7,460 nt of DNA from positions 1-7,460 of the IMG/VR virus record IMGVR_UViG_2693429524_000001. The stretch is one strand, 5' to 3'. Positions within the stretch are counted from its first letter, which is position 1; each line of letters begins with the position of its first letter. The position numbers and the translations under genes were made by a program. Positions 3,380 through 5,313 of the stretch are shown here, piece after piece. The notes under the pieces were generated by a model. That model saw only the letters and a program-made list of their open reading frames with translations. It was not told the DNA's origin and did no database searches. The DNA comes from a virus. Lineage: Duplodnaviria > Heunggongvirae > Uroviricota > Caudoviricetes.

Positions 3380-3460
3380 GACTCCTGTGGATTGATCCAG
3401 TAATTCCCTCAGAATTCCATCTGGATTTGTTCAGAACGCTCGGTTGCCGCCAGGCGTTTT
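3380..3460 (+). ncRNA. oop: oop antisense RNA (antisense to the cII 3' end), with its intrinsic terminator
   Basis: The plus strand GATTGATCCAGTAATTCCCTCAGAATTCCATCTGGATTTGTTCAGAACGCTCGGTTGCCGCCAGGCGTTTTTTATT is nearly identical to lambda oop RNA as I recall it. It ends in a GC hairpin plus T6, sits between O and cII, and is antisense to cII. Confidence 0.7.
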
Positions 3461-3702
3461 TTATTGGTGAGAATCGAAGCAACTTGTCGTGCCAATCGAG
3501 CCATGTCGTCGTCAACGACGCCCCATTCAAGAACAGCAAGCAGCATTGAGAACTTTGGAATCCAGTCCCTCTTCCACCTGCTGATCTGCGACTTATCAAC
3601 TCCCACAGCTTCCGCTGTCTTCTCAGTTCCAAGCATTGCGATTTTGTTAAGCAACGCACTCTCGATTCTTAGAGCCTCGTTGCGTTTGTTTGCACGAACC
3701 AT
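3409..3702 (-). CDS. cII: CII transcriptional activator, 97 aa (lambda-type)
   Basis: Internal Met of the 126-aa track ORF. From MVRANKRNEALRIESALLNKIAMLGTEKTAEAVGVDKSQISRWKRDWIPKFSMLLAVLEWGVVDDDMARLARQVASILTNKK... the product is essentially lambda CII. The upstream sequence TTAAGGAAATACTTACAT-ATG matches the lambda cII translation initiation region. Confidence 0.9.
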   Translation of the reverse strand: MVRANKRNEALRIESALLNKIAMLGTEKTAEAVGVDKSQISRWKRDWIPKFSMLLAVLEWGVVDDDMARLARQVASILTNKKRLAATERSEQIQMEF

Positions 3703-3722
3703 ATGTAAGTATTTCCTTAACA
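3680..3722 (+). promoter_or_regulatory. PRE-like promoter with CII binding site (TTGC-N6-TTGC) overlapping the cII start
   Basis: TTGCGTTTGTTTGC at 3680-3693 on the plus strand, followed by ACGAACCATATGTAAGTAT with a candidate -10 AAGTAT. This matches the lambda PRE arrangement and would drive transcription antisense through cro toward the repressor gene. Confidence 0.6.
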
Positions 3723-3730
3723 AATAAGAA

Positions 3731-3757
3731 GTTATGCGCATCAACTTATGCGCGTTG
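3731..3757 (-). terminator. Hairpin in the tR1 position between nutR and cII (possible Rho-dependent terminator region)
   Basis: Minus strand GCGCAT-AAGTTG-ATGCGC stem-loop with no U-tract. Position corresponds to lambda tR1, which is Rho-dependent. Weak call. Confidence 0.3.
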
Positions 3758-3760
3758 TAT

Positions 3761-3804
3761 TCCCGCATTTCGGCGGGAATGAGGACCATGACTGTTAAAG
3801 AGCA
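3761..3804 (-). promoter_or_regulatory. nutR (boxA + boxB) N-utilisation site
   Basis: On the minus strand, boxA-like TGCTCTTTAACAG (3804-3792) sits 7 nt after the cro stop. A 12-nt spacer follows, then the boxB hairpin TCCCGCCGAAATGCGGGA (3779-3762), identical to the boxB upstream of N. Confidence 0.7.
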
Positions 3805-3810
3805 ATTTGC

Positions 3811-3996
3811 TTATGCCGCTTTGCGGTAAGCGCTTTCTTGATACTTCAGGGCGCCAGCTGTAACGACTTCCAGTCGATAGGCGTCTTTCTCTGGGATGAC
3901 TTCCTTCCACTGAGAGACTGCTGCGTCGCTAATGCCTAACGCTTTAGCTACAGCACGCTGGGTTCCGAAGTGGTCGATAACATCTTTCTTGTACAT
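3811..3996 (-). CDS. cro: Cro repressor (P22-type), 61 aa
   Basis: Product MYKKDVIDHFGTQRAVAKALGISDAAVSQWKEVIPEKDAYRLEVVTAGALKYQESAYRKAA closely matches P22 Cro as I recall it. Divergent from the repressor gene across the operator region. Confidence 0.9.
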   Translation of the reverse strand: MYKKDVIDHFGTQRAVAKALGISDAAVSQWKEVIPEKDAYRLEVVTAGALKYQESAYRKAA

Positions 3997-4010
3997 AGAC
4001 TCGCCCCGAA

Positions 4011-4076
4011 ATTAAAGAACACTTAAATTATCCACTAAAGGAATCTTAAGTCAAGTTTATTTAAGATGTCTTAACT
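4011..4076. promoter_or_regulatory. OR operator region with PR (minus strand) and presumptive PRM (plus strand)
   Basis: Three 18-bp imperfect palindromes of P22-operator type (half-sites TTAAG/CTTAA): ATTAAAGAACACTTAAAT (4011-4028), ACTAAAGGAATCTTAAGT (4034-4051), ATTTAAGATGTCTTAACT (4059-4076). PR on the minus strand has -35 TTGACT (4054-4049), a 17-bp spacer and -10 ATAATT (4031-4026). The repressor ATG at 4077 has no SD, consistent with a leaderless PRM transcript. Confidence 0.7.
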
Positions 4077-4727
4077 ATGAAAACTCAATTGATGGGAGAG
4101 CGCATTCGCGCTCGGAGAAAAGAACTCAAGATCAGGCAGGCCGCACTTGGAAAGATGGTCGGCGTGTCTAATGTTGCCATATCTCAGTGGGAACGCTCTG
4201 AGACAGAGCCAAATGGAGAGAATCTTCTCGCCCTGGCTAATGCGTTGAAGTGTTCCCCTGACTATCTGATGAAAGGAGAGGAAAGTCTTTCAAACATTGC
4301 CTATCACAGTAGGCATGATCCAAGAGGGTCATTCCCTCTGATTAGCTGGGTGAGCGCAGGATGCTGGATGGAAGCTGTAGAACCATATCATAAGCGTGCA
4401 ATAGATAACTGGTACGATACAACCGTAGACTGTTCAGAAGATTCGTTTTGGTTGGACGTGAAGGGAGACTCAATGACGGCTCCAGCCGGTCTCAGTATCC
4501 CTGAAGGAATGATAATACTCGTCGATCCTGAAGTAGAGCCGCGTAACGGGAAACTTGTAGTTGCAAAGCTCGAAGGAGAAAACGAGGCAACTTTCAAGAA
4601 GTTAGTTATTGATGCAGGCAGGAAGTTTCTAAAACCACTTAACCCACAATATCCGATGATCGAGATCAACGGAAACTGCAAAATCATCGGCGTAGTTGTC
4701 GATGCAAAACTAGCAAACCTTCCATAA
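4077..4727 (+). CDS. c2: Prophage repressor, P22 C2 / lambda CI family (HTH plus LexA-like S24 autocleavage domain), 216 aa
   Basis: Product MKTQLMGERIRARRKELKIRQAALGKMVGVSNVAISQWERSETEPNGENLLALANALKCSPDYL... is highly similar to P22 C2 as I recall it. The C-terminal domain has the Ala-Gly ... GDSM ... K pattern of self-cleaving repressors. Confidence 0.9.
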   Translation: MKTQLMGERIRARRKELKIRQAALGKMVGVSNVAISQWERSETEPNGENLLALANALKCSPDYLMKGEESLSNIAYHSRHDPRGSFPLISWVSAGCWMEAVEPYHKRAIDNWYDTTVDCSEDSFWLDVKGDSMTAPAGLSIPEGMIILVDPEVEPRNGKLVVAKLEGENEATFKKLVIDAGRKFLKPLNPQYPMIEINGNCKIIGVVVDAKLANLP

Positions 4728-4749
4728 GGGGGCATTCGCCCCTTTTTTT
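4728..4749 (+). terminator. Intrinsic terminator immediately after the repressor gene
   Basis: GGGGGC-ATTC-GCCCC hairpin followed by T7, directly after the TAA stop. Confidence 0.6.
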
Positions 4750-4792
4750 ATTTCCTTTAAAAATCAAAGCTAAACTTAAGTTACGAAAGAAA

Positions 4793-4846
4793 ATTTAAGT
4801 TTTCTTCAAAAATACTCTTGACCATTAATTAAAGAGATCTTAAATT
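4793..4846 (+). promoter_or_regulatory. OL operators and PL promoter
   Basis: -35 TTGACC (4818-4823), 17-bp spacer, -10 TAAATT (4841-4846). Operator-like 18-mers ATTAAAGAGATCTTAAAT (4828-4845, 14/18 identical to the first OR site) and ATTTAAGTTTTCTTCAAA (4793-4810). A 12-bp perfect palindrome CTTAAATTTAAG overlaps the -10. Confidence 0.6.
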
Positions 4847-4891
4847 TAAGCCATCAGCAGGACGCTGGTAGCCAAACGGAACAGCTTGGCA

Positions 4892-4933
4892 GGCTCTTTA
4901 ACATTGATGGGATTGTCCCGCCGAAATGCGGGA
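4892..4933 (+). promoter_or_regulatory. nutL (boxA + boxB) in the N leader
   Basis: boxA-like GGCTCTTTAACA (4892-4903), 12-nt spacer, boxB hairpin TCCCGCCGAAATGCGGGA (4916-4933), identical to the nutR boxB. Lies about 40 nt downstream of the predicted PL start. Confidence 0.7.
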
Positions 4934-5040
4934 ACCAAAGAGTAGTTGGCTTTGGGGTGACGTGAAGTGCAGCTGCACGACGGCAACCGGAAGATAAGCA
5001 CCCGGCGCGTCACCGCCAAAGTCAATCATCGGAGGTCAAC

Positions 5041-5313
5041 ATGACAGTAGTCATTACATATCTGGCTGACGATAACGCCAGAAATCGCCGCAGAGCACGC
5101 AGACAGGCTCAACGTGAACAGGCAATGCAAGAGCAGCGACTGGCGCGAAAAATTGCGCTAAAGCTCTCTGGTTGCGTCAGAGCAGATAAAGCAGCATCAC
5201 TCGGAAGCCTTCGCTGCAAGAAGGCAGAAGAATGCAGTGGAAGTATTTGCCTGCCAAACGTAGCCATTTACTCGGCAGGCTACCGGAAATCAAAACAACT
5301 GACGGCGAGATGA
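5041..5313 (+). CDS. N: N-family transcription antiterminator, 90 aa
   Basis: First gene downstream of PL/nutL. N-terminal arginine-rich motif (DDNARNRRRARRQAQREQ). N- and C-terminal segments (MTVVITY..., ...YSAGYRKSKQLTAR) resemble P22 gp24; the middle (LARKIALKLSGCVRADKAASLGSLRCKKAEE) resembles phage 21 N, from memory. SD GGAGG is 5 nt before the ATG. Confidence 0.8.
   Translation: MTVVITYLADDNARNRRRARRQAQREQAMQEQRLARKIALKLSGCVRADKAASLGSLRCKKAEECSGSICLPNVAIYSAGYRKSKQLTAR

Follow-up and report, generated by a model that had tools for sequence, protein, structure and literature searches.

Exchange of modules within the N antiterminator of lambdoid phages has been described. The gp24 proteins of phage L and P22 are 96% identical in the 75 amino acids (aa) at the N-terminal end, carry unrelated C-terminal stretches of 25-35 aa, can functionally replace each other, and go with identical boxB hairpins (PMC8022706). 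The N protein of epsilon34 has a novel N-terminus on a conserved N body, which was read as a novel boxB specificity (PMC2629481). In phage 21, the CUAACC hexaloop of boxB is described as having four bases in a GNRA-like fold, next to a flanking C·C pair of non-canonical type (PDB 1NYB; PMC12550061). For HK620, nutL and nutR are marked in the GenBank record AF335538, along with an N of 90 aa labelled 'similar to Bacteriophages H19B and 21 N protein'. Here, we describe the control region between cII and N (positions 3409-5313) in a 7,460-bp stretch of viral DNA, hereafter called the window (positions 1 to 7,460 of IMG/VR record IMGVR_UViG_2693429524_000001). This DNA represents the early region of a lambdoid prophage whose rightward operon is encoded on the minus strand. 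A sequence-only reading had described the control region as a P22-type immunity core set between lambda-type modules, with a chimeric N protein and a boxB hairpin that it could match to neither lambda nor P22.

Results

The control region recurs in isolated phages and in many E. coli prophages

Positions 3413-5309 of the window align with phage JEP4 in one collinear stretch at 98.6% identity, and CUS-3 matches at 98.9% up to position 5232. Over 2441-7358, the whole of the stretch compared, a public IMG/VR prophage contig (L015) matches the window at 99.8%. At least 80% of the segment is carried by 255 of 5,426 complete E. coli genomes, and in E. coli Eco_70239 the collinear match extends from O to sieB at 98.2%. 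The expectation that the region would not be collinear with any single known phage does not survive the JEP4 alignment. The unrecognised boxB and the chimeric N, which had been thought unusual, are likewise the nutL, nutR and N annotated in HK620, whose N is identical to that of the window at 88 of 90 residues; given the wording of that annotation, the chimeric nature of this N was already on record. We are highly confident that this is a lambdoid early regulatory region from a prophage, all of whose modules are found in the same arrangement in sequenced phages and in many E. coli prophages. The mosaic is real, but it is an ordinary, already catalogued and very common control region.

Module boundaries were drawn from local BLAST and a 40-bp identity map against reference phages. 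When compared with the type phages lambda, P22 and 21, the region indeed splits into blocks with sharp junctions, and its mosaic nature, as first read, holds. Positions 1381-3719 (ren, P, O, oop, cII and the CII site of the PRE promoter) are lambda-like, with 94.7% DNA identity. They are followed by a block identical to HK620 at 3700-3803 (104/104; the PRE -10, the tR1 region and nutR), and by a P22/phage 21-type block from ~3790 to ~4900 with 83-84% DNA identity. The next block, 4846-5309, is HK620-like (98.7%; the start of PL, nutL and N) and contains at 5140-5219, in the middle of N, a stretch 100% identical to phage 21, while 5251-6066 (the end of N and sieB) is P22-like at 87%. The block junctions lie at conserved sequences. 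Lambda and HK620 have in common the 20 bp at 3700-3719, where the start of cII, the ribosome-binding site of this gene and the PRE -10 are located, and the limits of the P22/21-type core coincide with the two boxA elements.

Sharp junctions of this kind would also be left by a recent and unusual recombination particular to this genome, which would have paired parts that do not match, with lambda CII driving a heterologous repressor and N having only just become chimeric. As one piece, the full 7.46-kb combination is indeed absent from the 5,426 complete E. coli genomes. However, the junctions are sharp only when lambda, P22 and phage 21 serve as the sole references. JEP4 and CUS-3, both isolated phages, have the same cII-nutR-cro-cI-nutL-N order at ~99%, the segment is found in the 255 genomes and the contig mentioned above, and the N chimera is the HK620 N, which belongs to a cluster of ~490 members, with ~1,200 more of a CUS-3-like form. 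A recent recombinant is therefore highly improbable.

Both nut sites carry the same boxB hairpin

The 18-nucleotide (nt) sequence TCCCGCCGAAATGCGGGA occurs in two exact copies in the window, at 3761-3778 on the minus strand and at 4916-4933 on the plus strand; no copies are expected by chance, even with two mismatches. Both copies are on the strand that is transcribed, and both follow a boxA GCTCTTTAAC, 13-15 nt 3' of it. In nutR (3761-3803, minus strand), boxA at 3803-3794 is followed by a spacer and by boxB at 3778-3761. In nutL (4893-4933, plus strand), boxA at 4893-4902 is separated by a 13-nt spacer from boxB at 4916-4933, and the site matches the nutL annotated in HK620 at 42 of 42 positions. 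The order of genes and sites on the left (PL at 4818-4846, nutL, then N from 5041) and on the right (PR at 4054-4027, cro, nutR, then cII) fits a lambdoid N/nut system.

The boxB sequence folds into a stem of 6-8 bp with a CGAAAU loop (folding energy dG -10.5/-12.0, z -3.4/-3.9). It differs from the boxB of lambda (GCCCTGAAGAAGGGC), of P22 (GCGCTGACAAAGCGC) and of phage 21 (CTAACC loop), each taken from the phage's own locus. Comparison with the actual loci thus upholds the view that one boxB, unlike that of lambda or P22, stands at both nut sites, and adds phage 21 to the list. By analogy with the phage 21 hexaloop, GAAA in the C-GAAA-U loop could form a true GNRA tetraloop, and the C and U on either side a pyrimidine-pyrimidine C·U pair. 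Intrinsic terminators were considered for the two hairpins and ruled out by the absent T-run and the canonical distance after boxA. An Rfam scan of the window gave only sub-threshold chance matches, with no family for nut or oop.

N is assembled from three modules

The N gene (5041-5313, plus strand) encodes 90 aa that match Pfam family PF25694 N_peptide with 58.3 bits (cutoff 27.9) and PHROG 271 (E=4.5e-34). Residues 1-33 form an arginine-rich N-terminus of the HK620 type, residues 34-64 are identical to phage 21 N in the alignment, and residues 65-90 form a C-terminus of the HK97/Stx-phage/P22 type. When aligned with the N proteins of lambda, 21 and P22, it shows no variation at A13, R16, R20 and R21. 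The arginine-rich motif (ARM) MTVVITYLADDNARNRRRARRQAQREQ, together with the boxB TCCCGC-CGAAAT-GCGGGA at both nut sites, places the window in the HK620-type N/boxB class.

The protein had been described as having P22 gp24-like ends around a phage 21-like middle. Its middle is as described; its C-terminus is P22-like (17 of 24 residues at aa 67-90), but the nearest relatives of the last 22-24 residues are the N proteins of HK97, VT2-Sakai and 933W (87-91%). At the N-terminus, likeness to P22 is limited to MTVVITY versus MTVITYG, and this part of the description falls away.

N homologues were drawn from a collection of 5.8 billion proteins. Among them, the window ARM occurs on three different N bodies. 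The first, that of the window, combines the phage 21 middle with the P22/HK97-type C-terminus (90 aa; the cluster of ~490 sequences). The second combines the phage 21 middle with a lambda/21-type C-terminus (99-101 aa; CUS-3 and ~1,200 sequences). The third has both middle and C-terminus of P22 (86-87 aa; Salmonella and Enterobacter), one Salmonella example (P0092) agreeing with P22 gp24 at 39 of 42 C-terminal residues. Conversely, one homologue (P0059) carries the phage 21 ARM on the body of the window N. In general, N of this type is a mosaic of three modules.

A DNA search with nutL and the ARM coding region matched HK620, HK140, HK630, mEpX2, mEp213, ECP1, HF4s, N7, CUS-3 and others. Several other searches were uninformative. 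A PDB sequence search with N returned spurious low-complexity matches only; tblastn of the 35-aa arginine-rich N-terminus against the phage collection gave no match, probably due to low-complexity masking; and a profile search of genome contigs with the N alignment matched 600 stretches, none of which was confirmed.

The arginine-rich motif of N and boxB change together

The sequence-only reading had proposed that boxB co-evolved with the ARM of this N. We took the loci of divergent N homologues and read the nut sites at each. This ARM is present at seven loci, namely the window itself, JEP4, CUS-3, two from Salmonella, one from Enterobacter and one from Cedecea. All seven have a CGAAAT-loop boxB at both nutL and nutR, and the repressors of the Salmonella, Enterobacter and Cedecea loci are unrelated to that of the window. 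The four loci with a phage 21-like ARM have a CTAACC-loop boxB wherever a nut site lies within the DNA examined. One of these four (L010) has the same N middle, N C-terminus and immunity core as the window.

A further 80 IMG/VR loci were chosen via their N protein, independently of boxB. The exact window boxB is present at both nut sites in 73 of them. The seven exceptions are two contig ends, one insertion sequence (IS) upstream of N, two deletions from cro to Q, and two phages of the mEp213 type with a second N. Between the matched nut sites lie four unrelated repressor/cro cores (in 34, 27, 11 and 1 loci, respectively). The proposal is thus supported: the ARM tracks boxB in every intact locus examined, and a phage 21 ARM on the same N body goes with a phage 21 boxB.

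The hairpins might nevertheless not be specific for this N. With a relaxed specificity, or one overlapping those of lambda, P22 and 21, the shared boxB would reflect linked ancestry and not functional co-evolution. The ARM has the A-x-x-R-R-x-x-R-R core seen also in N of lambda, P22 and phage 21, and the boxB requirements of P22 and lambda reportedly overlap. Moreover, nutL lies only ~110 nt upstream of the ARM coding sequence, so that linkage suffices for their co-occurrence. It does not suffice for nutR, which is 1.1-1.7 kb away, beyond a core that has been exchanged at least four times, and still has an unchanged boxB; because a repeatedly exchanged segment splits nutR from the ARM coding sequence, linkage alone fails to explain the match. 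Phage 21 and L010, which have the same P22/21 core, carry the phage 21 ARM with the phage 21 boxB at both sites, and the Cedecea nutR has altered stem bases with the CGAAAT loop kept. We consider linked ancestry unlikely as the explanation; on this pattern across loci, the coupling of ARM and boxB is most simply taken as functional.

We also suggest, tentatively and with slightly less than even confidence, that the ARM DDNARNRRRARRQAQREQ and the C-GAAA-U boxB form a distinct N-boxB specificity class, biochemically uncharacterised and orthogonal to the lambda, P22 and phage 21 pairs. No biochemical, binding or structural study of the HK620-type pair was found in the searchable literature, which leaves out most subscription journals.

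The Cedecea lapagei locus (L009) has the sole divergent boxB of this class seen. Its nutR boxB (~1108-1091, minus strand) reads TCCCAC-CGAAAT-GTCGGA, and its N differs in the ARM, too (RRALQRKQ). The two loci with a cro-to-Q deletion (L060 and L073, ~1036-1557) represent defective prophages. In both, the fusion of cro to sequence further downstream gives a 173-aa open reading frame (ORF); the stretch from nutR to a Q-like gene is deleted, and the repressor, nutL and N are kept.

In phages of the mEp213 type (L018, 818-2873; also L017), the PL operon contains two N genes. A lambda N (ORF 1116-1448) comes first, preceded by a lambda nutL with its boxA at 818. The second, ~1.5 kb downstream at 2601-2873, is an intact 90-aa N of the HK620 type, and its upstream homology begins just past the expected boxB position. 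No CGAAAT-loop hairpin was found within 2.6 kb upstream of it. To judge by this arrangement, the second N appears to be an orphan antiterminator. We considered mEp213 as a counter-example to the coupling and rejected it, as lambda N and lambda nutL come first in the PL operon and this N second.

The immunity core is of the P22/21 type

The core between the nut sites begins with cro (3811-3996, minus strand), a gene of the P22/21 type matching Pfam P22_Cro. Its product is 100% identical to Cro of JEP4 and CUS-3, 96.7% to that of phage 21 and 95.1% to that of P22. Three right operators of 18-19 bp (4011-4028, 4033-4051 and 4059-4076) overlap PR on the minus strand (-35 TTGACT at 4054, -10 GATAAT ending at 4027). 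They agree with the annotated phage 21 operators at 18/18, 18/19 and 18/18 positions, and the aligned right operators of the window, P22 and phage 21 are near-identical, with a mean column identity of 91%.

The prophage repressor gene (cI/C2; 4077-4727, plus strand) encodes a LexA-like protein with a helix-turn-helix (HTH) and an S24 autopeptidase (HTH_3 and Peptidase_S24). It is 99.5% identical to the repressors of JEP4 and CUS-3, 97% to the full ORF of phage 21 and 92% to P22 C2; residues 17-53, including the HTH, are identical among the window, phage 21 and P22. The gene is followed by the intrinsic terminator tIMM (4726-4745, plus strand), which has a GC-rich stem and a T-run, and whose counterpart is annotated in HK620 and phage 21. 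The left operators (4764-4781, 4793-4810 and 4828-4845) were placed by alignment, and PL (plus strand) has its -35, TTGACC, at 4818 and its -10 ending at 4846.

P22 immC and imm21 are classically regarded as sharing their specificity; a search of the accessible literature yielded no usable statement to this effect. Both the DNA-recognition region (repressor residues 17-53) and the operators assign the window to the P22/phage 21 immunity group, and, with the closeness of repressor, Cro and operators to phage 21, the core is the P22/21 immunity type in a third allele. The likeness to P22 immC noted earlier is one of type; in sequence, phage 21 is the closer relative of both repressor and Cro.

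The phage 21 record (OL657228, 4682-5332) annotates a 190-aa repressor that starts from an internal Met. Read from an in-frame ATG further upstream, the protein has 216 aa, is collinear with P22 C2 and the window repressor and covers the whole HTH, and the annotated form is probably too short.

cII and its promoter move as one lambda-type module

The cII gene (3409-3702, minus strand) encodes a lambda-type activator of lysogeny establishment (Pfam Phage_CII, E=3e-47) that is 97.9% identical to lambda CII. The predicted CII binding site TTGCGTTTGTTTGC (3680-3693, plus strand), in the -35 region of PRE, is the sole TTGC-N6-TTGC match in the window. It lies in the lambda-like block and is aimed rightward at the repressor gene, so that a CII-family activator and a TTGC-N6-TTGC promoter facing the repressor, as in the lambda establishment module, are both present. 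Likeness to lambda ends at 3719, close to the cII ribosome-binding site and the PRE -10. Since the CII site lies inside the 5' coding end of cII itself, activator and promoter move as one module. The sequence-only reading had stressed that CII must here express a heterologous P22-type repressor. The parts are as stated, with a lambda-type CII and TTGCGTTTGTTTGC upstream of a P22/21-type repressor, but nothing special has to be explained, because the transcript of this module reads into any repressor gene downstream.

The oop antisense RNA (3387-3463, plus strand) is identical to that of lambda at 71 of 77 positions and is preceded by a promoter-like site, Po (-35 TTGAGT starting at 3351, -10 CATAAT ending at 3379). 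Downstream of cII on the minus strand follow the lambda-type genes O (2438-3376; 94% aa identity to lambda), P (1740-2441; 97%) and ren (1453-1743; 90%). The origin in O (2906-3028) contains six iteron-like repeats (starting at 2906, 2929, 2953, 2973, 2992 and 3012), compared with four annotated iterons each in lambda and phage 21; the window O has 312 aa versus 299 aa, which fits a 13-aa insertion.

The left arm ends in a P22-type sieB and an insertion element

The superinfection exclusion gene sieB (5330-5911, minus strand) lies next to the control region and outside it. Its product belongs to the Pfam SieB family and to PHROG 1301 (E=5e-123) and is 84.8% identical to P22 SieB, and BLASTP against lambda SieB gave no match at E<=1e-3. 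Of the flanks called lambda-like, cII, PRE, oop, O, P and ren are so; sieB is of the P22 type instead. Curated family models also back the other gene calls (Phage_CII, P22_Cro, HTH_3 with Peptidase_S24, N_peptide, Phage_rep_O and Phage_lambda_P). At the left end of the window lie ninB (106-546), an adjoining Lar-like restriction-alleviation ORF (509-745, minus strand), and two small ORFs between the Lar-like gene and ren.

On the plus strand, three conserved phage ORFs (PHROGs 3054, 1273 and 6949; 6055-7005) lie between sieB and a cIII remnant. A 149-aa ORF among them has hydrophobic stretches that give it the look of a membrane protein. The cIII-like start (ATG at 7189) is truncated, as DNA likeness to the cIII of lambda and JEP4 stops at 7216. 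From ~7250 to 7460 there is the end of an IS3-family element, with a terminal repeat and the C-terminus of a transposase, which in matching E. coli sequences carries an IS1203-like annotation. The interruption seems to affect both cIII and the remainder of the left arm.

With a transposase end beside the truncated cIII, the region might be an inert remnant of a defective prophage, in which the N/nut system no longer functions in the host. Degraded related loci exist as well, such as L054 with an IS upstream of N, and L060 and L073 with their cro-Q deletion. In the window, however, every ORF from ren to sieB is intact, as are both nut sites, the six operators, PR, PL, PRE and oop, and the region is near-identical to the isolated phages HK620, JEP4 and CUS-3. 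We regard an inert remnant as quite unlikely.

Discussion

The comparisons above describe a lambdoid control region whose working can be proposed from homology at every step. In the lysogen, a repressor of the P22/phage 21 type would occupy three operators per side and keep PR and PL off. After induction, PL would be transcribed into nutL and N, and PR into cro, nutR, cII, O, P and ren. The ARM of N would bind the CGAAAU-loop boxB in both nut transcripts, and boxB-bound N, together with host Nus factors at boxA, would allow the polymerase to pass terminators into cII-O-P and the left-arm genes. CII bound at TTGC-N6-TTGC would fire PRE, antisense through cro and into the repressor gene, to establish lysogeny, and oop RNA would oppose cII.

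Three points weigh against reading the locus as a common and working early region. The full-length combination is missing from the complete E. coli genomes, nothing out of the ordinary for lambdoid prophages, and is present in contig L015 over the part compared. The prophage may be defective, given that an IS3-family element adjoins the truncated cIII-like start, and the circuit is perhaps idle in this host. Finally, RNA binding, antitermination and immunity specificity are here assigned by homology.

The locus illustrates in textbook fashion how lambdoid phages exchange modules, and public phage records already contain every module and the arrangement itself. Its modest value is that of a clean natural experiment: the immunity core and the middle and C-terminus of N are swapped independently, yet the ARM continues to match both boxB hairpins, which illustrates the parts that have to co-evolve. 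In prophages of Enterobacteriaceae, the HK620-type N-boxB pair is very common. If it does form a distinct specificity class, it could be used as one more pair for peptide-RNA tethering. It may also be asked whether the orphan second N of mEp213-type phages acts in trans on the nut sites of other phages.

Comparison with known phages

JEP4 (MT740315) and CUS-3 (CP000711) are the closest relatives, with the same cII-nutR-cro-operators-repressor-nutL-N order and 98.6-98.9% DNA identity (repressor 99.5%, Cro 100%); the N proteins of JEP4 and the window are 97.8% identical. Both phages differ in replication genes, which are of the P22 type (O and a DnaB-type helicase), whereas the window has lambda-type O, P and ren. 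CUS-3 also differs in N, which has a lambda/21-type C-terminus and 99 aa, and in the N leader, where 206 bp are inserted at window position 5026 (L002, 5616-5822), between nutL and the N ribosome-binding site. This insertion is annotated as part of a 'boundary sequence' (bsq5), and the window, JEP4 and HK620 are without it. HK140, IME10, Gally and L019 show a two-piece match to the window or extra leader sequence at this point, which suggests similar leader insertions.

HK620 shares N (88/90 aa), nutL (42/42), the nutR-tR1 stretch (104/104) and window positions 4846-5309 (98.7%), but its immunity core is unrelated, with a 434/L-like cI (42% identity), a Cro of the lambda type and hkaS as an additional gene. 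Its cII is P22 c1-like, whereas that of the window is lambda-like. Phage 21 and P22 have the same type of repressor, Cro and operators, and phage 21 N is identical to the window N in the middle module (aa 34-64). Their core DNA is, however, only 83-84% identical to that of the window, and each has its own ARM and boxB (a CUAACC hexaloop in phage 21, a GACAA pentaloop in P22); phage 21 CII is only 39% identical to the window CII. With lambda, the window shares the cII-PRE-oop-O-P-ren module (94.7% DNA identity over 1381-3719, CII 97.9%, the same TTGCGTTTGTTTGC site, oop 71/77), with the difference that the window O has a 13-aa insertion and six origin iterons instead of four. Like the gp24 proteins of phage L and P22, the N of the window has exchanged modules; there, two modules are involved, and here three, in several combinations among the homologues.

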